6,005 nucleotides of DNA from a virus (lineage: Duplodnaviria > Heunggongvirae > Uroviricota > Caudoviricetes), in IMG/VR virus record IMGVR_UViG_3300029722_000070, positions 1-6,005 of that record. One strand, given 5' to 3'. The notes under the pieces were generated by a model. It was not told the DNA's origin. It saw nothing but the letters and a program-made list of their open reading frames with translations, and did no database searches. Position 1 is the first letter of the stretch. Each line of letters starts with the position of its first letter. Made by a program: the position numbers and the translations under genes. Below are positions 1-6,005 of this stretch, one piece after another.

Positions 1-213
1 CATTTGCGCTGTCACTTTCGGTACCGGTGACACCGGTTCACTTTCACCAGCCTGAATCAGCCACCACATCGAACCCTTGTTATCCGCTTCACCGCGGCGC
101 TTCAGTTTCCACAGTTCGTTGACCGCATCTTCACGGCTGATTCCAAGGCGGGCCGCCACTACCTGTGAAGAGGCTCTTTTCAGTGCTTTCAGTGCGTCAA
201 ATACGGTTTCCAT
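1..213 (-). CDS. Small hypothetical protein, possibly a winged-helix DNA-binding protein at the Ren position downstream of P; the 3' end runs off the left edge of the window
   Basis: ATG at 213-211 (complement) with GGAGGA 7 nt upstream (complement of 221-226). Reading frame is open to position 1. Translation begins METVFDALKALKRASSQVVAARLGISREDAVNELWKLKRRGEADNKGSMWWLIQ. It sits where ren lies in lambda, directly after the P-like gene. Not in the ORF track because no stop falls inside the window. Confidence 0.5.
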   Translation of the reverse strand, partial: METVFDALKALKRASSQVVAARLGISREDAVNELWKLKRRGEADNKGSMWWLIQAGESEPVSPVPKVTAQM

Positions 214-246
214 TAAAATTTCCTCCGACAAAATCGTTTCTCAGAT

Positions 247-909
247 TCAAATAAAACCAGCTGCCTTCCGGCGTTCGTATTCCTGTTTCAGCCGTTCAAT
301 TGGCGTTGGCCCTTGCGGGTGTTTCGCCCCTTCCAGTTGTCGTCGCACTGGCGGAACACTCATCCCGTTACCAACATGCTTTGCCCATTTCGTCAGTTGC
401 CGTTCCGCAAGTCGTTTTAACTCACCCTGCGTCATCTGGCGCTCAATCCCTCTGGTACGCATTTCGAGGCAGATGTGGTACAGCACAGGCTGTGGCCACG
501 GGTATTTATCACTCCCGTCGTATCGCCAGGATTCATTGCGCCAGCGCCGGTACTCTTCCATCACTGCATCCACCGTAAGACCAAATGGATTTGCCCCACT
601 CTCCGAAATCAGTGCAACAAACTCAGCCAGGTCCGGGGGCCACGTTTCACCCGCCCGGCAGCGGTCCATGCACTGACGGCAGACCAGCCGGATTTGCTGT
701 TCAGTCATCGTGCCAATCTGGGCAATCCATAGCTTCGAAGGTGCGGCCCCGTTCTTCTGTGTCCAGCGGTTCGAATACACCTCCCCCATAAGCTCCCACA
801 GCTTCCAGGCCGTTTCCGTTGCTGATAAATCCGTTGTCACGTTCCCACTGTTCGCGTGCTGCCCGGATTTCCTGAACTGCCCGTGATGCCGTGCCACCTG
901 ATGCTGCAT
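247..909 (-). CDS. Replication protein P-like (DnaB helicase loader, lambda P family)
   Basis: 220-aa ORF with AGGGGG Shine-Dalgarno about 7 nt upstream of the ATG at 909. From recalled sequence, the C-terminal half (YPWPQPVLYHICLEMRTRGIERQMTQGELKRLAERQLTKWAKHV) aligns with lambda P (YPWKSNAHYWLVTNLYQNMRANALTDAELRRKAADELVHMTARIN), and the central IGTMTEQQIRLVCRQ segment aligns with lambda P GITTMEQVNAGMRVAR. Position after an O-like gene fits. Confidence 0.78.
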   Translation of the reverse strand: MQHQVARHHGQFRKSGQHANSGNVTTDLSATETAWKLWELMGEVYSNRWTQKNGAAPSKLWIAQIGTMTEQQIRLVCRQCMDRCRAGETWPPDLAEFVALISESGANPFGLTVDAVMEEYRRWRNESWRYDGSDKYPWPQPVLYHICLEMRTRGIERQMTQGELKRLAERQLTKWAKHVGNGMSVPPVRRQLEGAKHPQGPTPIERLKQEYERRKAAGFI

Positions 910-1429
910 GGCTTACCCCCTTGCTGACTGGTTTTACCTGTGCCCTGACGTGCTGCACGTGGCGGGCAAATTTCTGCTCCCACTGAACCTGCGTGAAAAC
1001 CTTCCCCTCCGCCATCCAGTAATCCCGGAATGCGGCAAGCTCTGCAGGTGTAAATTCCGGCTCAGGCAGAGCCATACCCCACACTGCTGCCCGTTGTCGA
1101 AAATCCGACGACGGCTGCCAGACAGTAGTCATCAAAAATTTCCCGATCGGTTCGCTCAGGCCGTCCAGGTATTCAGGTTCGGCTGTCTGCAACGGCGCAC
1201 CATGCGACTCACCGGTTGGAGCACTCTCGCGCATGCGCGTGTTATGTGTGGGGTTTAATTCTGTATCTGTATCTTTATCTGTCGTGACTTGTCGTGACTT
1301 GTCGTGACAGATGCGTGACACGTCGTGACTCATCGTGACAATCAGCATCATATTTCCGCAGCTTTTCGCGCTCCCGCTGCGCTCTCTTGCGCTCTGCCGG
1401 GGATTTTGCCGTTTGCGAAACGTTACCAT
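701..1429 (-). CDS. O-like replication initiator, C-terminal portion; in a different frame from the N-terminal ORF, so probably a frameshifted gene or pseudogene
   Basis: 242-aa ORF. The first 60 or so residues are low-complexity and read through the repeat array, but from about residue 80 the sequence looks protein-like (FLMTTVWQPSSDFRQRAAVWGMALPEPEFTPAELAAFRDYWMAEGKVFTQVQWEQKFARHV). No convincing ribosome-binding site of its own. It overlaps ORF 1275-1754 by 155 nt and overlaps the P start by 209 nt in another frame. Confidence 0.4.
   Translation of the reverse strand: MVTFRKRQNPRQSARERSGSAKSCGNMMLIVTMSHDVSRICHDKSRQVTTDKDTDTELNPTHNTRMRESAPTGESHGAPLQTAEPEYLDGLSEPIGKFLMTTVWQPSSDFRQRAAVWGMALPEPEFTPAELAAFRDYWMAEGKVFTQVQWEQKFARHVQHVRAQVKPVSKGVSHAASGGTASRAVQEIRAAREQWERDNGFISNGNGLEAVGAYGGGVFEPLDTEERGRTFEAMDCPDWHDD
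1260..1283. repeat. Four tandem hexamers (TCTGTA TCTGTA TCTTTA TCTGTC), AT-rich, abutting repeat array A
   Basis: Read directly from the sequence at 1260-1283, preceded by TTTAATT. An AT-rich tract next to iterons is the usual layout for a DNA unwinding element. Confidence 0.5.
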
Positions 1430-1748
1430 TGTCCTCTTTCAGCACCTGACGTTTTTCCCATCCGGAAATAAGGTCACCATCCAGAACCCGCCCCTGCATT
1501 GCATGCAAAATTGAATCAATTACGTCTTCCGTCACATCAAGCGCACTTGCTAAATCTTCCGTCGTGACATCAATGTGACCACGTAGTGACACGCCGTGAC
1601 ATGTCGTGACATTTCGTGACGCACTCACCAGAAGGTGGATATACACCGCCATCACTGTTGCGATTGGCTGTCCTGAGACCCTGGCAATGGTTCGCCATTT
1701 GGGATCATTTGGCATGTCATGCCACAATCTGAGCCAGGCATTAGCCAT
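1275..1748 (-). CDS. O-like replication initiator, N-terminal (putative origin-binding) portion
   Basis: ORF track gives 1275-1754 from a GTG; the in-frame ATG at 1748-1746 has a GAGGTG Shine-Dalgarno just upstream and is preferred. It lies between the CII-position gene and the P-like gene, as O does in lambda. Both repeat arrays fall inside it. It ends at a stop inside repeat array A. Confidence 0.6.
   Translation of the reverse strand: MANAWLRLWHDMPNDPKWRTIARVSGQPIATVMAVYIHLLVSASRNVTTCHGVSLRGHIDVTTEDLASALDVTEDVIDSILHAMQGRVLDGDLISGWEKRQVLKEDNGNVSQTAKSPAERKRAQREREKLRKYDADCHDESRRVTHLSRQVTTSHDR
1284..1339. repeat. Iteron-like array A: six GTGAC cores (consensus TCGTGAC) phased at 10-11 bp
   Basis: GTGAC begins at 1284, 1294, 1304, 1315, 1325 and 1335 (spacings 10, 10, 11, 10, 10). 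The first three units are exact copies of GTCGTGACTT. Helical-turn phasing inside an initiator gene suggests initiator binding sites (ori). Confidence 0.7.
1564..1620. repeat. Iteron-like array B: six GTGAC cores phased at 10-11 bp
   Basis: GTGAC begins at 1564, 1575, 1586, 1596, 1606 and 1616 (spacings 11, 11, 10, 10, 10). Same core and phasing as array A, about 280 bp away, within the N-terminal coding part of the O-like gene. Confidence 0.7.
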
Positions 1749-1816
1749 ACTCACCTCATCTGATACCGAACTTTACCCTCGAACATCCGGAAGAAATCCG
1801 GCATGAATATTGTTGG

Positions 1817-2242
1817 TCAATGCACGACAACAGCATTACCAGGCTGACCACCACTGTTAGTCAGGGTGCCCCAGGCGATCGCCGCTGCGACAAAATCATC
1901 CACATCTTTCACCAGCCGATCCCTCCGTTCGACGATCTCACGGTAATATTCAGAGCTGTGACTGCGCATACGGGCCACCAGCAGAGGCGGCATTGCCTTT
2001 TCGATCGCCGGTAACAGAGCCTGAATTTTTTCAACAGCATCAGGGGTGTCTTTATCCAGCCAACGGAAAATTTTCTGGGTATTACGAGCCAGGGCTTCCG
2101 GATGGCTGTCGTCGTACAGTTCCGGGAACGTCATTCCCAGCTCGAAATACGCTTTGGTAATTTTCGCAGCCGGTACTTTTTCGCCGTCCGGATGCGCCCA
2201 GACATTCATCGCCATGCGGATATGTTCATGTTTGATTTTCAT
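1817..2242 (-). CDS. YdaT-like protein at the CII position
   Basis: 141-aa ORF whose ATG (2242-2240) overlaps the stop of the upstream cro-like gene (2239-2241) by 3 nt, which suggests translational coupling. It occupies the slot between cro and the replication genes. The MKIKHEHI N-terminus and length match my recollection of the YdaT family; this is from memory, not a search. Confidence 0.65.
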   Translation of the reverse strand: MKIKHEHIRMAMNVWAHPDGEKVPAAKITKAYFELGMTFPELYDDSHPEALARNTQKIFRWLDKDTPDAVEKIQALLPAIEKAMPPLLVARMRSHSSEYYREIVERRDRLVKDVDDFVAAAIAWGTLTNSGGQPGNAVVVH

Positions 2243-2454
2243 GAATCATTCTTTCCTTCGTTCGAGGTGCTATCCTGCTTCTTGTAAAGTTCTGGGTTGT
2301 ATTTCAATTCACCGTTAGTAATTTCATCCAGTTCCATTGCGCGAAGTTTGGGAATAACTGCTTTCCACCGCACAACAGCCACATGTGAAATTCCAAGAGC
2401 CTCAGCTACTAGTCGCTTTTTTTTGAAATAGCGCAGAACATCATCTTTGAACAT
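2239..2454 (-). CDS. cro: Cro-like HTH regulator (P22 Cro / YdaS family)
   Basis: 71-aa ORF with AGGAGAG Shine-Dalgarno 5-6 nt upstream of the ATG at 2454. The sequence MFKDDVLRYFKKKRLVAEALGISHVAVVRWKAVIPKLRAMELDEITNGELKYNPELY aligns along its length with P22 Cro as I recall it (MYKKDVIDHFGTQRAVAKALGISDAAVSQWKEVIPEKDAYRLEIVTAGALKYQ). It is divergent from the repressor gene. Confidence 0.85.
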   Translation of the reverse strand: MFKDDVLRYFKKKRLVAEALGISHVAVVRWKAVIPKLRAMELDEITNGELKYNPELYKKQDSTSNEGKNDS

Positions 2455-2483
2455 AAAACTCTCCTGTTATTTCGAGCAGAAGG

Positions 2484-2497
2484 GTAACAATAGTTAC
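2484..2497. promoter_or_regulatory. Candidate operator O1 (GTAAC-AATA-GTTAC)
   Basis: 14-bp site with perfect 5-bp inverted-repeat arms, read directly from the sequence. Confidence 0.55.
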
Positions 2498-2531
2498 ATA
2501 ACAATGTCAACCATAGCAACATCACTTGGTA

Positions 2532-2545
2532 GTAACATTGGTTAC
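2532..2545. promoter_or_regulatory. Candidate operator O2 (GTAAC-ATTG-GTTAC), abutting the repressor start codon
   Basis: Same arms and spacer length as O1, centred 48 bp from it, ending one base before the ATG at 2546. Confidence 0.55.
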
Positions 2546-3220
2546 ATGAAAAACACTATCAGCGAACGTATTCGGAATCGTCGAAAAGACGTTGGATTAA
2601 CCCAACAGCAGGTTGCGAAAGCAATCGGCATATCTCGTGTATCCGTAACAAAATGGGAAAATGGCTCTTCAAAACCTGACGGTGAGAATTTGTATCTACT
2701 GTCAAAATTGCTTTCCAAATCTCCTGAATGGATTCTTTATGGAAAGGACTGTCACGATAAAACCGATGATCTGCGTCTGAATCAGTACCCTTACATTAGT
2801 GACAACATCGCCCGGTTGCCCGTTTTAACGTGGGAACAGGCTGGTTATTGGGATATGAGTTGTCCAGTAACCAAGATTCCTGGTATTAAGAACTGGGTTG
2901 ATGTCATGACAAAAACCGCTGAAAACTCTTTTTTATTGCATGTTGAGGGAGATGCGATGACAAACTCTAACGGCCTCCCAACCATCCCCGACGGATCTAC
3001 CGTGCTGATTACACCATGCTCAAGTAACATTAGAGAACTGGTGGGAAAAATAATCTTAATCCAATTGGAAGGAACGCCAAACGTAACACTAAAAAAAGTT
3101 GCGATTGACGGACCAAACATCTATTTGTTGTCACTGAATCCGCTTTACAAACCCATCGAACTGAATGGTGGTTACACCATTAAAGGTAAAGTTTCACAAA
3201 TACATCAATACTTAGACTGA
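2546..3220 (+). CDS. cI: CI/C2-type immunity repressor (N-terminal HTH, C-terminal LexA-like S24 domain) with Ala at the nucleophile position
   Basis: ORF track gives 2447-3220. I chose the ATG at 2546 because MKNTISERIRNRRKDVGLTQQQVAKAIGISRVSVTKWENGSSKPDGENLYLLSKLLSKSPEWILYGKD aligns from residue 1 with the P22 C2 N-terminus as recalled (MNTQLMGERIRARRKKLKIRQAALGKMVGVSNVAISQWERSETEPNGENLLALSKALQCSPDYLLKGD), and because it leaves both operators intergenic. The C-terminal domain aligns with lambda CI and P22 C2: SFLLHVEGDAMT against SFWLDVQGDSMT, and VTLKKVA against ATFKKLV. No obvious Shine-Dalgarno, which fits a leaderless transcript as for lambda cI. Confidence 0.9.
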   Translation: MKNTISERIRNRRKDVGLTQQQVAKAIGISRVSVTKWENGSSKPDGENLYLLSKLLSKSPEWILYGKDCHDKTDDLRLNQYPYISDNIARLPVLTWEQAGYWDMSCPVTKIPGIKNWVDVMTKTAENSFLLHVEGDAMTNSNGLPTIPDGSTVLITPCSSNIRELVGKIILIQLEGTPNVTLKKVAIDGPNIYLLSLNPLYKPIELNGGYTIKGKVSQIHQYLD

Positions 3221-3225
3221 GTCAG

Positions 3226-3251
3226 AACCCGCATTCATTGCGGGTTTTTTA
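3226..3251 (+). terminator. Rho-independent terminator downstream of the repressor gene
   Basis: Stem AACCCGCA (3226-3233) and TGCGGGTT (3239-3246) with loop TTCAT, followed by TTTT (3247-3250). Begins 6 nt after the repressor stop codon. Confidence 0.75.
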
Positions 3252-3294
3252 TGCCCTCAAATGTACCTTTTGTAACATTGCATTGACTCGAAAG

Positions 3295-3308
3295 GTAACT
3301 CTTGTTAC
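3295..3308. promoter_or_regulatory. Candidate operator O3 (GTAAC-TCTT-GTTAC), OL-like, with a possible rightward early promoter
   Basis: Third copy of the GTAAC-N4-GTTAC palindrome, flanked as GGTAAC...GTTACC. A GTAAC half-site lies at 3272-3276 and a TTGACT hexamer at 3284-3289. It sits after the repressor terminator and upstream of the rightward small gene at 3490, the position OL/PL occupies relative to cI in lambda. Confidence 0.5.
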
Positions 3309-3489
3309 CCTAACAACATACCAACCCACCCCGCCCCACAGAACGCCGGGCAATACTGCGAGTTACCAGGCAGTGGTCAGGGGTTAAGTAGCCAGCCCGA
3401 GGCGTAAGAACATGACGGCAGGGTTCAACTTTAACTATGCAGCAGGTTTTTGTTCCGCTCCCCCGGCGTTAAGGGGAAATGAGGTCAGC

Positions 3490-3642
3490 ATGGATACTAT
3501 CGAGCTTGGCAACAGCGAATCTCTGGTATGCGGCGTGTTTCCCAACCAGGACGGCACGTTTACCGCGATGACGTATACCAGAAGCAAAACGTTTAAAACG
3601 GAAGCTGGCGCGCGTCGCTGGTTAGCAAGAAACTCTGACTGA
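3490..3642 (+). CDS. Small hypothetical protein, YdaF-like (DUF1391-type prophage protein)
   Basis: GAGG at 3481-3484, 5 nt before the ATG at 3490. 50-aa product MDTIELGNSESLVCGVFPNQDGTFTAMTYTRSKTFKTEAGARRWLARNSD. The ORF track starts the same frame at 3412 (76 aa); I prefer the shorter form for its ribosome-binding site and its resemblance to the roughly 50-aa Rac YdaF as I recall it. First gene right of the OL-like operator. Confidence 0.6.
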   Translation: MDTIELGNSESLVCGVFPNQDGTFTAMTYTRSKTFKTEAGARRWLARNSD

Positions 3643-3740
3643 TGAAGGTTAGTAATTAAAGAGTTCTCCACAGGCGAAGTGGAATACGTTCGCCGGACAC
3701 GGGTAAGCATTCGGCATGCTCTTTAACAATCTGGGTATTC

Positions 3741-4187
3741 CTAACCACAAAGGAATCGCATCAATTTGGATTTTGCAGACAGTTTCTCTTGTTGTTCTAC
3801 GGAGATTCCTATTTTGATCTGGGTTTTTAAGATTGCGATATCTTTAAGCGACGACCAAATATTATCATCTGTTTTTTCCAGGAGCTTTAACTGCATTTTC
3901 AATTCCGAATCGGAATATTTTTCTGCATCATCATAAAGCTGCAGATATTCTGCGGATTTTCTCATTGCGTTACCTGACTTTTGTCCGAATCCGTAAATCG
4001 TTTGAACGGTTGCTATCACAACAATGAGAACTCCAGAAACTTCAGGAATAAATCCACCAATGACAGATGAACCGAGGATAATACTCACCACTGAGAAAAG
4101 TTTATCGAGACGACCAGTCGCTACAGAGAATAGTTGTTCAAGAAAATAACCATATAAAACCCTGTCAAGAATATCATCCCGGTCCAT
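3741..4187 (-). CDS. Small membrane protein with two predicted transmembrane helices; candidate superinfection-exclusion protein (SieB-like)
   Basis: 148-aa ORF with AGGTGA 7 nt upstream of the ATG at 4187. Two adjacent hydrophobic segments (LFSVVSIILGSSVIGGFI and VSGVLIVVIATVQTIYGF) followed by a charged, helix-prone C-terminus. It is oriented against its neighbours, as sieB is in the Rac prophage. No competing ORF on the other strand. Confidence 0.6.
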   Translation of the reverse strand: MDRDDILDRVLYGYFLEQLFSVATGRLDKLFSVVSIILGSSVIGGFIPEVSGVLIVVIATVQTIYGFGQKSGNAMRKSAEYLQLYDDAEKYSDSELKMQLKLLEKTDDNIWSSLKDIAILKTQIKIGISVEQQEKLSAKSKLMRFLCG

Positions 4188-4246
4188 ATATCATCACCTG
4201 CTTGTTTGATTGTTGCTGTTCCCCCTCTCCTCTGAAGGAGCTGGAG

Positions 4247-4435
4247 ATGGTTTTGGTCGAATGTTTTTCTCAGGTATATGTTTCCTGGTATTCGGAATGT
4301 CCGCCCTGTCCGCAGGCTTACCAGTACCTGAACAATTCTTTTGAACCACCATATAAAACACCTTCCTGTTGTTGGGGATATCCAGATTATACAGATTTCC
4401 TGTTATTGGGGAATGACGGAAACCACCTCGCCTGA
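4247..4435 (+). CDS. Candidate small cysteine- and aromatic-rich protein (62 aa); uncertain
   Basis: GAAGGAG Shine-Dalgarno (4234-4240) 6 nt before the ATG at 4247. Product MVLVECFSQVYVSWYSECPPCPQAYQYLNNSFEPPYKTPSCCWGYPDYTDFLLLGNDGNHLA has 6 Cys in 62 residues. The ORF track lists the same frame from 4202. No homolog recognised and codon usage looks atypical, so it may be spurious. Confidence 0.2.
   Translation: MVLVECFSQVYVSWYSECPPCPQAYQYLNNSFEPPYKTPSCCWGYPDYTDFLLLGNDGNHLA
4363..4412. repeat. Pair of 16-bp direct repeats TTCCTGTTRTTGGGGA
   Basis: Copies at 4363-4378 (TTCCTGTTGTTGGGGA) and 4397-4412 (TTCCTGTTATTGGGGA), one mismatch, start-to-start spacing 34 bp. They fall in different frames of the 4247 ORF, so this is a DNA-level repeat rather than a peptide repeat. 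Confidence 0.5.
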
Positions 4436-4665
4436 CGTGGTTAAAAGCAGGCACACAACACGAAAGCGCACGGCGAGATTCCTTTGCATATAAGGCTTGT
4501 CGTTAAATTTCTTCGACCGTGCACTTCCGGTTGTGGCAGTCCGCGAAATGGCGCGGCGGTAAGTATGGCTGGGGCTTCCTCCATTGCTCCAGAAAATGCA
4601 CCGGGTCGTCAGGTTGACCATACGCTTAAGTGACAGCCCCGCCACAATACCCATGCGTAGTCTTT

Positions 4666-4709
4666 GGTGGCATCAGTTCTACTCCGTGACTGCTCTGCCA
4701 CCCTTTTTA
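4666..4709 (+). terminator. Candidate intrinsic terminator or RNA 3' hairpin
   Basis: GGTGGCA (4666-4672) pairs with TGCCACC (4696-4702), with an inner CAGT/ACTG pairing, followed by CTTTTT (4703-4708). The loop is long (23 nt), so the call is weak. Confidence 0.3.
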
Positions 4710-4814
4710 AAGTGAATTTTGTGATGCGGTGAATGCGGCTATGCGCACGCGGAACAGTTAAAACCGTAAAGTGGTCTTTTACGGGGCGTAACGGGCATCC
4801 TTCTGTATTCCGGC

Positions 4815-4854
4815 GTTAATTGTTAACTGGTTAACGTCACCTGGAGGCACCAGG
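4815..4854. promoter_or_regulatory. Cluster of GTTAA(C) motifs plus a short hairpin upstream of the 4891 gene; candidate regulatory site
   Basis: GTTAATTGTTAACTGGTTAAC at 4815-4835, with inverted arms TTAAC (4823-4827) and GTTAA (4830-4834). Hairpin CCTGG-AGGCA-CCAGG at 4840-4854. Lies 35-75 bp upstream of the ATG at 4891. Confidence 0.3.
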
Positions 4855-4890
4855 CACTGCATCACAAAATTCATTGTTGAGGACGCGATA

Positions 4891-5079
4891 ATGGAAACGT
4901 TATTACCAAACGTTAATACGTCTGAAGGTTGTTTTGATATTGGAGTTCTGCTCAGTAACCGGGAGTTTACTGAAGATGCCATTAAGATGAGAAAATATGA
5001 ACCTTATCTTCTCAATGATAATTCCATACTTTCCAGAATTGCCCTTCTTGAACTTGGTATTATCGGAGAACAGCAGTGA
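4891..5079 (+). CDS. Small hypothetical protein (62 aa), early-operon gene
   Basis: GAGG at 4879-4882, 8 nt before the ATG. Product METLLPNVNTSEGCFDIGVLLSNREFTEDAIKMRKYEPYLLNDNSILSRIALLELGIIGEQQ. No homolog recognised. Confidence 0.5.
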   Translation: METLLPNVNTSEGCFDIGVLLSNREFTEDAIKMRKYEPYLLNDNSILSRIALLELGIIGEQQ

Positions 5080-5096
5080 CTTCAGCATTTGCACTG

Positions 5097-5240
5097 ATGA
5101 TGACCGTTTTTCTTATAACGGGCGAGCCACAGACTGTGATTACCGGAATTTTTGCCAGTAAAGAATCCCGCCTCCAGGCAAGAGACAAGCAAAAAATTTC
5201 TGGTGAATGCCTCCCGTTAAAAAAGTATCGCTGTACCTGA
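5097..5240 (+). CDS. Candidate small protein (47 aa from the ATG at 5097, or 54 aa from the GTG at 5076), possibly Kil-like
   Basis: The GTG at 5076-5078 overlaps the TGA stop of the preceding gene (5077-5079, GTGA overlap), suggesting translational coupling. Product MMTVFLITGEPQTVITGIFASKESRLQARDKQKISGECLPLKKYRCT has a hydrophobic N-terminus and a basic C-terminus. Absent from the ORF track, presumably for length. The Kil comparison rests only on size and position. Confidence 0.3.
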   Translation: MMTVFLITGEPQTVITGIFASKESRLQARDKQKISGECLPLKKYRCT

Positions 5241-5357
5241 ATAACGAAACACCGGCTGGATAACCCGCCAGCCATATTAACACCATACCAACGGATTAAA
5301 AATGCCAGCAATGGCAGGGATTCGTTCACCCTGAAATCTGTCATGAGGTTAAAACAA

Positions 5358-6005
5358 ATGAGTAAAGTCTTTATTTGCGCCGCTATTCCTGACGAACTGG
5401 CAACAAGGGAAGAAGGCGCTGTGGCTGTAGCCACAGCCATTGAAGCTGGCGACGAACGCCGTGCTCGAGCAAAATTTCACTGGCAGTTCCTGGAACATTA
5501 TCCGGCTGCTCAGGACTGCGCTTATAAATTTATTGTCTGCGAGGATAAACCTGGCATACCCCGCCCTGCCCTCGATTCATGGGATGCTGAATATATGCAG
5601 GAAAACCGCTGGGATGAGGAGTCTGCTTCTTTTGTCCCGGTTGAGACTGAATCCGATCCGATGAACGTCACTTTTGACAAGCTGGCCCCTGAAGTACAGA
5701 ACGCTGTCATGGTTAAGTTCGACACATGTGAAAACATCACCGTTGATATGGTTATTAGCGCACAGGAATTGTTGCAGGAAGACATGGCAACATTCGACGG
5801 ACATATCGTTGAAGCGTTGATGAAAATGCCAGAAGTTAACGCCATGTATCCGGAGCTTAAGTTGCACGCCATTGGGTGGGTTAAGCATAAATGTATTCCT
5901 GGTGCTAAATGGCCCGAAATTCAGGCAGAGATGCGCATCTGGAAAAAACGTCGCGAAGGTGAACGCAAGGAAACCGGAAAATACACGTCTGTTGTTGATC
6001 TCGCC
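5358..6005 (+). CDS. Hypothetical acidic protein, 5' partial view (at least 216 aa, continues past the window)
   Basis: GAGG at 5345-5348, 9 nt before the ATG at 5358. Frame is open through 6005. Product begins MSKVFICAAIPDELATREEGAVAVATAIEAGDERRARAKFHWQFLEHYPAAQDCAYKFIVCEDKPGIPRPALDSWDAEYMQENRWDEE. Not in the ORF track because it has no in-window stop. The listed ORFs 5440-5664, 5522-5872 and 5577-5888 overlap it in other frames and look spurious. Confidence 0.7.
   Translation, partial: MSKVFICAAIPDELATREEGAVAVATAIEAGDERRARAKFHWQFLEHYPAAQDCAYKFIVCEDKPGIPRPALDSWDAEYMQENRWDEESASFVPVETESDPMNVTFDKLAPEVQNAVMVKFDTCENITVDMVISAQELLQEDMATFDGHIVEALMKMPEVNAMYPELKLHAIGWVKHKCIPGAKWPEIQAEMRIWKKRREGERKETGKYTSVVDLA

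Follow-up and report, generated by a model that had tools for sequence, protein, structure and literature searches.

We analyzed a 6,005-nucleotide stretch of viral DNA (IMG/VR virus record IMGVR_UViG_3300029722_000070, positions 1 to 6,005; the whole stretch is called the window below) and found that it carries a conserved two-gene cassette on its minus strand: a micro-open reading frame (micro-ORF) for a 52-aa proline-rich peptide, unannotated in RefSeq, and, directly behind it, a gene for a predicted 148-aa inner-membrane protein. The chromosome of E. coli SCU-104 (NZ_CP053284.1) contains the window sequence without a difference, in a lambdoid prophage integrated beside ompW. The anatomy of the cassette, its conservation, the geometry of its coupling and its homologies are directly established. 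On sequence and by analogy we favor the reading that this would be a lysogen-expressed superinfection-exclusion or abortive-infection cassette placed in the "sieB slot" of the prophage, a proposal to which we give an even chance; the membrane protein would then be the effector and the co-translated peptide its regulator. The cassette and the elements that adjoin it are the following.

4359 to 4415, minus strand: PsieB-type promoter and 5' leader, by homology to the annotated P22 sieB promoter
4411-4397, minus strand: box 1, CCCCAATAACAGGAA, the first CCCC(A/T)AC box, at the -35 position
4391-4386, minus strand: -10 hexamer TATAAT
4377-4363, minus strand: box 2, CCCCAACAACAGGAA, the second CCCC(A/T)AC box, in the short 5' leader
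4421 to 4452, no strand assigned: conserved element 5' of the -35 with two interleaved stems, GCCTG 4452-4448/CAGGC 4434-4430 and AACCAC 4442-4437/GTGGTT 4426-4421
4194 to 4352, minus strand: proline-rich micro-ORF of 52 aa, MVVQKNCSGTGKPADRADIPNTRKHIPEKNIRPKPSPAPSEERGNSNNQTSR, with ATG at 4352 and TGA at 4196-4194
3741 to 4187, minus strand: 148-aa inner-membrane protein (WP_000373333.1), the presumed effector, from its ORF, hydropathy and a structural model
3643 to 3740, no strand assigned: left flank of the cargo slot, forming the cassette 3' untranslated region, conserved and without a canonical intrinsic terminator

An initial annotation of this DNA had described a 50-aa ORF at 3490-3642 (plus strand) and a 148-aa ORF at 3741-4187 (minus strand), both of which are present. 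The functional unit comprises two genes, the micro-ORF and the membrane gene, and not one; the conserved micro-ORF had been overlooked, as had the homology of the sequence upstream of it to the P22 sieB promoter. It possesses a Shine-Dalgarno (SD) sequence, GGAAGGTG (4366-4359), located 6 nt 5' of its ATG, and its TGA falls inside the SD of the 148-aa gene, AGGTGA at 4199-4194, itself 6 nt 5' of ATG 4187. Because the micro-ORF stop sits on the large-gene SD, the large gene is almost certainly translated in coupling with the micro-ORF. An 86-aa ORF with a GTG start at 4194-4454 was rejected, since protein conservation and an SD are found only from ATG 4352 and the upstream part overlaps the promoter.

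A micro-ORF equivalent occurs in 13/13 independent loci, from E. coli to Vibrio, even with a large protein that is only ~25% identical. The loci checked include Salmonella L004, E. coli L005, L009 and L028, Enterobacter L006, Serratia L050, Providencia L056 and Vibrio L049, together with the metagenomic contigs L054 and L055 and the phages PSTNGR2lys and EKP1. In all 13 the micro-ORF has 23-52 codons, ends 5-18 nt before the large-gene ATG and carries a tail of the type R-P-x-P-x-P-P (for example VPYRPTTPTPRPPAKP, HRPPKPTPPKEDRK and VRPTPPPPVPTK); from shuffled upstream sequence, the chance of such a micro-ORF is 0.4% per locus. Stop and SD abut or overlap in most loci (TGAGG or TAAGG; AGG-TGA in the window), and the records of Providencia phage PSTNGR2lys and of phage EKP1 already annotate a very small coding sequence directly 5' of the large-gene homologue. 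The ratio of non-synonymous to synonymous substitution rates (dN/dS) is 0.25 for the micro-ORF (window versus L005; of 32 synonymous sites 17 differ, and of 109 non-synonymous sites 22) and 0.08 for the large gene (window versus L028). Both cassette ORFs are thus under purifying selection, and they co-occur across Enterobacterales and Vibrio prophages. Searches of Pfam and PHROG returned no family for the micro-ORF, and it is absent from a distant, co-oriented Snodgrassella subfamily.

The overlap or abutment of the stop with the large-gene SD in most loci also fits an alternative in which the micro-ORF is a cis-acting leader only: slow decoding of proline and termination on the SD would set the output of the membrane protein, which would act alone, and the peptide itself would be functionless. 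That the constant part is the RPxPxPP-type tail, while the remaining peptide varies freely (with a mosaic N-terminus in L028), points the same way, and some versions carry runs of PPPP to PPPPPPPP. Consecutive-proline runs stall ribosomes in the absence of EF-P. The window micro-ORF, however, has no consecutive prolines (PKPSPAPS), and purifying selection at the amino acid level (dN/dS 0.25-0.44) reaches the non-proline part IP-x-x-R-x-HIPEKNIRP. We regard a pure leader as a serious but unlikely alternative.

Natural deletions bear on this question as well. In six IMG/VR loci (L034-L036, L042, L043 and L046) the micro-ORF is mostly deleted between two CAAGCAGGTG direct repeats. L034-L036 keep an intact large gene without the micro-ORF, and therefore the peptide is not strictly needed to tolerate the large gene; in L042 and L043 the large gene carries V61D, in the second transmembrane (TM) helix, and E104G, and in L046 a frameshift. 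Every IMG/VR locus without the micro-ORF deletion has a full-length large gene, and likely damaging changes are seen only in deletion sub-lineages (two). This suggests, on small numbers, a functional link between the two genes, and also that the large gene can do without the peptide as an antidote. For the leader hypothesis the tolerance of micro-ORF loss in the L034-L036 lineage is favorable, whereas the association of that loss with large-gene lesions is not. The same association, and the translational coupling of a small upstream gene to a potentially toxic membrane protein, would also be expected of a toxin-antitoxin or addiction module, in which a membrane toxin and a labile peptide antidote stabilize the prophage and do not exclude phages. 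We consider this very unlikely, given the persistence of an intact large gene without the micro-ORF in L034-L036 and a slot and sieB-type promoter that are common to other exclusion cargo. Toxin-antitoxin and abortive-infection functions do overlap, and an addiction module would not be fully exclusive of the exclusion cassette that we favor.

Two lines of comparison identify the putative promoter of the cassette. First, window positions 4384-4455 are 78% identical over 72 nt to the P22 PsieB region (feature "sieB: promoter" of P22-pbi, AF527608), and the aligned sequences share the upstream motifs GCCTG, AACCAC, CAGGC and GTGGTT in this order, both boxes and the -10 hexamer. Second, the ~110 nt 5' of the micro-ORF are 82-87% identical in Enterobacter and Salmonella loci, in which the large proteins are just 25-58% identical. 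The promoter segment is matched in 95 phage records (Salmonella, Escherichia, Klebsiella, Shigella, Hafnia, Cronobacter), P22 and its relatives included. The initial annotation had the 148-aa gene as an oppositely oriented accessory gene with its own promoter by the immunity region, and the homology to PsieB bears this out; from it we infer that the PsieB-type promoter is active in the lysogen.

Other phages have unrelated cargo behind the same sieB-type promoter cassette: a 66-aa protein in mEp460, gp36 (144 aa) in SfIV, a 90-aa protein in a Hafnia phage and, in PhiR29_1, a protein of ~170 aa with coiled-coil and Cys-pair motifs. The promoter cassette was located at 3037-3345 of L047, 1501-2150 of L058, 1501-2042 of L059, 1501-1876 of L060 and 1801-2487 of L057 (P22, SieB/Esc). 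We conclude from these comparisons that the sieB position is probably a cargo slot with a conserved expression element, of which the window holds one alternative cargo.

The two interleaved stems of the conserved element upstream of the -35 stand in pseudoknot order. The element is present not only at loci with the cassette but also in P22 (L057 1804-1836), PhiR29_1, mEp460 and the Hafnia phage; L004, L050, L056, L002, L047, L058 and L060 all carry it. Both arms of a stem have changed in a compensatory way in Serratia (GCCGGG/CCCGGC), in Salmonella (CTAC/GTAG) and in a Providencia phage (CCTCA/TGAGG), and one G-U pair in Providencia fits only the cassette-sense strand. These stems were read by eye, as automatic stem picks proved unreliable and three sequences are out of register in the MAFFT alignment A8. 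Folding of the element (4421-4452) gave no thermodynamic signal and a search of Rfam no family. Lying 5' of the presumed transcription start site, the element may act on RNA of the sense of the left promoter (PL), perhaps in the manner of sas, or as a protein site, or as alternative hairpins.

The extent of the cargo follows from its flanks. In a pairwise alignment with phage mEp460, homology runs over 3452-3645 and resumes from 4402, with differing genes in between, and the 3643-3730 flank is common to phage Evi (L048) and E. coli locus L009 at 83-85% identity, beside different cargo. Because homology holds only in the flanks, the variable cargo is ~3646-4401 (~756 bp, low GC, minus strand); GC is 0.37-0.42 across the cassette region as against ~0.50-0.53 in the flanks. 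The insert holds two minus-strand genes, the 52-aa micro-ORF and the gene of the 148-aa membrane protein. These are found in 89 of 5426 complete E. coli genomes, chromosomal in every case. Several E. coli O145 Shiga toxin-producing (STEC) strains retain only the first 255 nt of the cassette, that is, the micro-ORF and the start of a truncated large gene (e.g. NZ_CP031347.1 1107682-1107936).

The 50-aa gene at 3490-3642, in contrast, is conserved backbone and lies outside the cargo, its segment being present in 4369/5426 complete E. coli genomes. It had been called YdaF-like and a member of the same accessory module as the membrane gene; the family assignment stands (Pfam PF07151, DUF1391: E 1.5e-27, 95.4 bits against a cut-off of 27.3, 48/48 profile positions; also PHROG 751 and, in RefSeq, "DUF1391 family protein"), while its membership in the module does not agree with a distribution so much wider than that of the cargo. 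A longer, 76-aa reading of this ORF (3412-3642, plus strand) scores 147.6 against 120.4 bits with PHROG 751 (profile positions 2-69/70), and PHROG 37620 matches the first 45 of its residues. In some phages the start may thus lie at 3412; otherwise, conservation of the 5' region would have another cause.

The 148-aa protein has one hydrophobic block, residues 30-68 (~4100-3984), which Pro48-Glu49 cuts into TM helices 30-47 and 50-68, so that the two-helix membrane protein with its own ribosome-binding site described initially is recovered. Both helices are free of charged residues and are flanked by charged residues on both sides, a hydropathy pattern that suggests an N-in/C-in hairpin with a predicted periplasmic loop of only ~2 residues. 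An N-terminal helix precedes the hairpin, and a helical, predicted cytoplasmic C-domain of 80 residues follows it. An AlphaFold2 (AF2) model computed from a 45-sequence alignment is all-helical (mean confidence, pLDDT, 78.5), with helices at residues 3-44, 48-65, 67-86, 93-105, 112-125 and 138-147; it supersedes an earlier, poor model from a 7-sequence alignment (pLDDT 57.6).

A profile search of 1.84 billion representative proteins yielded 145 family clusters at 50% identity, nearly all of them stand-alone proteins of 145-180 aa, with named members from Enterobacter, Serratia, Citrobacter, Providencia, Vibrio, Salmonella and E. coli. Against Pfam the 148-aa protein returned nothing at E<=1, and its one match, at 6e-24, is to PHROG 6315 ("unknown function"). 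That it could belong to an uncharacterized family had been allowed for at the outset, and the lack of any Pfam or PADLOC match agrees with this; its nearest recognizable relatives are effectors with a SLATT domain. In distant versions of the cassette an extra small gene (78-154 aa) stands 3' of the membrane protein (L009 6583-6843, L054 3583-3819 and L007 6679-7143); the window has none.

At 20-30% identity, family members still occupy the same antisense slot, between the repressor and the early-left genes, in prophages of Enterobacter, E. coli, Serratia, Providencia and Vibrio. In readable contexts the large gene lies in the prophage early-left region, as a rule on the opposite strand and with the repressor on one side and exo/kil/dicB-type genes on the other; it was found once beside a baseplate module and once between Q-like and lysis genes. 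The host prophages vary in tail type, with both lambdoid and P2-like baseplate contexts. In phage EKP1 (L003, OM284015.1, deposited as an Elizabethkingia phage) the cassette stands between a Q-like antiterminator and the holin-lysozyme-Rz genes, on the opposite strand, and this location is a second kind of moron slot for the unit of micro-ORF and membrane protein.

These observations bear on two further alternatives. The protein could block phage entry without killing the cell, stopping DNA injection in the manner of P22 SieA, T4 Imm or HK97 gp15. SieA is an inner-membrane injection blocker (PMC10883804), and a small predicted inner-membrane protein at a prophage locus with presumed lysogen expression would suit such a role. 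We nevertheless think it quite unlikely: a periplasmic loop of ~2 residues leaves almost nothing to face the ejection apparatus, the family spans prophages of different tail types, and its sole affinities in sequence and fold are with SLATT effector domains. Alternatively, a small protein with two TM helices might serve the phage's own lytic cycle or the control of lysogeny, with a holin/antiholin-like or membrane-stress role and no lysogen expression, and the EKP1 cassette does adjoin the lysis genes. Yet even there it is on the strand opposite to them, the 11 other contexts are in the early-left region and antisense to the early operon, and an 80-residue cytoplasmic helical domain with SLATT affinity is unlike a holin. 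On the same contexts we rejected an identification of the protein as a holin, and a lytic or lysogeny-control function seems to us scarcely probable.

Several comparisons connect the family with SLATT proteins. At E<=0.01, 27 of 111 family members match NCBIfam SLATT_4 and 4 of 111 match SLATT_1, all below the curated thresholds; the best family scores against SLATT_4 are ~23-24 bits (cut-off 55), and P0165 aligns to positions 18-137/154 of a SLATT model at E ~5e-5. The architecture by hydropathy and AF2, two adjacent TM helices with an N-terminal helix and C-terminal helices, is that of SLATT domains of ~130-155 aa. Structure prediction had been among the checks proposed initially; in a Foldseek search of BFVD, most named top matches are SLATT-domain proteins (probability 0.98-1.0, TM-score 0.56-0.70), with E-values of only 0.02-0.2, and searches of PDB structures gave nothing specific. 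One relative, P0212, is named SLATT in UniRef (alignment A2 versus P0212, hhalign 95.6%); it matches no Pfam or NCBIfam SLATT model itself, and we give the name little weight as support. Taken together, sequence and model suggest that the 148-aa protein is SLATT-like, probably a distant branch of the superfamily.

A number of results weigh against the favored reading of an exclusion cassette with a SLATT-like effector. The window protein scores just 15.2 bits against SLATT_4 (E 0.014; cut-off 55), no Pfam SLATT model matches it at E<=1, and the Foldseek E-values of 0.02-0.2 are a weakness of the SLATT assignment. No locus inspected has a SMODS, SLOG, TIR or reverse transcriptase (RT) partner gene beside the large gene, and neither the 148-aa protein nor the upstream ORF matched a family among the PADLOC-DB 2.0 defense models. 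A generic sigma-70 scan of 3150-5000 called no promoter at the PsieB-type site, where the -35 is weak. Downstream of the cassette (3643-3740) the scan called no terminator and folding was no better than that of shuffles (z -1.28); the terminator-like sites that it returned across 3150-5000 lie inside an ORF on the wrong strand or are otherwise irrelevant. The intact large gene of the micro-ORF-deleted L034-L036 belongs with these points.

If the exclusion cassette is nonetheless what we have found, a sequence of events can be proposed. Its trigger, pore activity, peptide function and antisense self-immunity are modeled by analogy with the SieB/Esc/sas and SLATT systems. In the lysogen, cI would repress PL while the PsieB-type promoter transcribes the cassette. 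Ribosomes would translate the micro-ORF, stop on the large-gene SD and re-initiate, so that peptide and membrane protein are made together, and the 148-aa protein would insert in the inner membrane as an N-in/C-in hairpin. The proline-rich peptide, at least stoichiometric through coupling, would restrain or gate the effector directly or indirectly, as Esc does SieB. Infection by a heterologous phage would be sensed, freeing the 148-aa protein to oligomerize like the SLATT effectors of the cyclic-oligonucleotide-based antiphage signaling system (CBASS) and of defense-associated reverse transcriptases (DRT). The oligomers would collapse membrane integrity, macromolecular synthesis would stop (the classical SieB phenotype) and the infection would be aborted. 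Upon prophage induction, transcription from PL would run antisense through the cassette and silence it, conferring self-immunity (compare the P22 sas RNA).

A more specific version of this scheme, which we put forward as distinctly doubtful, gives the micro-ORF a novel role, as sensor or gate of a SLATT-like pore that stands alone. The RPxPxPP tail, nascent or released, would couple the state of the translation machinery to the translation and activation of the effector, so that a phage perturbing host translation trips the pore; the whole would be carried on a "plug-and-play" PsieB element, with its interleaved stems, from which many P22-like and lambdoid phages would express interchangeable exclusion cargo, silenced by PL antisense transcription in their own lytic growth. 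Proline-rich antimicrobial peptides, pyrrhocoricin and apidaecin for example, have ribosome-tunnel-binding motifs that the tail resembles.

The sieB slot with its promoter in P22 and effectors of the SLATT type are already known. A stand-alone SLATT-like family, its proline-rich micro-ORF partner and its occupancy of the sieB slot appear to be undescribed in the literature searched, where we found nothing specific on a stand-alone SLATT, sieB-hotspot or proline-peptide system and no paper describing an association of a SLATT-like protein with a proline-rich peptide. Should the cassette exclude phages, it would represent a new minimal defense architecture, a stand-alone SLATT-like effector with a peptide partner of 23-52 aa, and would raise the question of how SLATT effectors are triggered. 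Across P22-like and lambdoid phages, the sieB locus would then serve as a conserved platform for the expression of swappable cargo, and be a practical site for mining exclusion genes in the way of the P2/P4 hotspots. It would also mean that a conserved, selected micro-ORF has escaped annotation pipelines in 89 complete genomes of E. coli, among them several from STEC O145 or clinical isolates. If no phenotype is found, the cassette is another prophage moron without an assigned function. The main interest, in our view, lies in the unannotated conserved micro-ORF and in the sieB promoter cassette as a shared platform for interchangeable cargo.

The prophage that surrounds the cassette is lambdoid and Qin/Rac-like. 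Its remaining features in the window are listed below.

Left end of the window, minus strand: replication genes
1817-2242, minus strand: YdaT/CII-like gene
2239-2454, minus strand: Cro gene
2504-3220 (annotated), plus strand: LexA/S24-type repressor
Directly 3' of the repressor stop codon: hairpin and T-run, read from the sequence
3283 to 3311, plus strand: PL-like promoter TTGACT-N17-TACCCT overlapping a left operator (OL)-like site, with the promoter function presumed
3490 to 3642, plus strand: DUF1391 (YdfA/YdaF family) gene, 50 aa, WP_000379613.1, the first gene of the early-left operon
4652 to 4703, plus strand: DicF small RNA gene (Rfam RF00039, 58.9 bits against a gathering score of 48, E 2.2e-11)
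4891-5079, plus strand: dicB, annotated downstream of DicF

The gene order is thus cI, terminator, OL/PL-like site, DUF1391, opposite-strand cassette, DicF and dicB. The OL-like operator GTAACTCTTGTTAC at 3295-3308, within the TTGACT-N17-TACCCT site, is a palindrome of the form GTAAC-N4-GTTAC that matches two copies between cro and cI (2484-2497 and 2532-2545), and an operator just 5' of this segment had indeed been noted initially. The backbone is an early-left operon of the Qin dicBF type, controlled by an OL/PL-like region; from the sequence, the PL-like promoter at 3283-3311 would drive this operon antisense to the cassette. The position of DicF (4652-4703) shows that the cassette lies within a dicBF-type operon and antisense to it, with the ydfA-like gene on one side and DicF/dicB on the other. 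The annotated repressor ATG at 2504 places the operator copy GTAACATTGGTTAC (2532-2545) within coding sequence, and the true start may be ATG 2546, directly 3' of that copy. A sub-threshold match to Rfam STnc100 covers 4701-4923 (plus strand) in the gap between DicF and dicB (32.4 bits against a gathering score of 47, E 2.7e-4). The O-like replication gene (701-1754, minus strand), with a DnaT-like single-stranded DNA-binding domain, is frameshifted in RefSeq and split here into two overlapping ORFs (701-1429 and 1275-1754), and because of this split the prophage may be defective.

Among known systems, the E. coli K-12 Qin dicBF operon (ydfA-ydfB-ydfC-dicF-dicB) resembles the backbone in its DUF1391 gene, DicF small RNA and dicB with DUF1482. 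It differs in the interval between the ydfA-like gene and DicF, where the window carries an antisense cassette and other versions have co-oriented genes; mEp460 and Evi have other genes in this interval. The rexAB genes of phage lambda are likewise prophage-encoded beside the immunity region, with expression in the lysogen, as presumed for the cassette, and, for both, presumed membrane-acting abortion of superinfection. RexB is a four-TM protein, co-transcribed with cI, that needs the RexA sensor. It has no sequence similarity to the 148-aa protein, which in turn has no PADLOC match.

The closest parallel in locus is P22 sieB/esc. The sieB gene sits between gene 24 and ral on the strand opposite the PL operon, the same arrangement as that of the window cassette: each is antisense in the PL early-left operon just beyond the immunity region, behind a homologous promoter and leader. 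Each has two products, SieB and its inhibitor Esc in P22 and the membrane protein and micro-ORF peptide in the window, and in SieB and the 148-aa protein alike a pair of TM helices is predicted near the N-terminus, with a cytoplasmic domain behind it. Hence the initial SieB-like assignment is sound for the locus and fails for the protein. The Pfam search for SieB (PF14163), suggested at the time, gave no match for the 3741-4187 product, with P22 SieB as positive control at 4.3e-29, and hhalign of profile A3 with P22 SieB reached a probability of 0.5%; we therefore rejected homology to SieB. Esc, moreover, arises from an in-frame internal start, whereas the second product in the window comes from a separate upstream proline-rich ORF, and the invariant columns of the close-relative alignment contain no conserved internal Met from which an Esc-like start could be made. 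How SieB itself acts is, to our knowledge, not known. Among the genes that the P22 prophage expresses is sieB, which halts macromolecular synthesis in cells superinfected by P22-like phages (PMC10883804), and P22 protects itself from SieB by Esc and the antisense sas RNA (PMC12197685).

With SLATT effectors (SMODS and SLOG-associating 2TM; NCBIfam SLATT_1/SLATT_4, Pfam PF18181-PF18186; CBASS, DRT3 and DRT10) the 148-aa family shares the plan of a helix, a TM hairpin and further helices in ~150 aa, and the setting of biological conflict on a mobile element. SLATT proteins are the membrane effectors, and predicted pore-formers, of some CBASS systems and of DRT3/DRT10 (PMC11381338; bioRxiv 10.64898/2026.04.29.721553), where they rely on a partner that produces nucleotides or cDNA (SMODS, SLOG or RT); how a SLATT effector becomes activated is stated to be unknown in the DRT10 preprint (bioRxiv 10.64898/2026.04.29.721553). 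Unlike these effectors, the 148-aa family misses all curated cut-offs and is stand-alone; apart from a proline-rich peptide of 23-52 aa it has no conserved partner.

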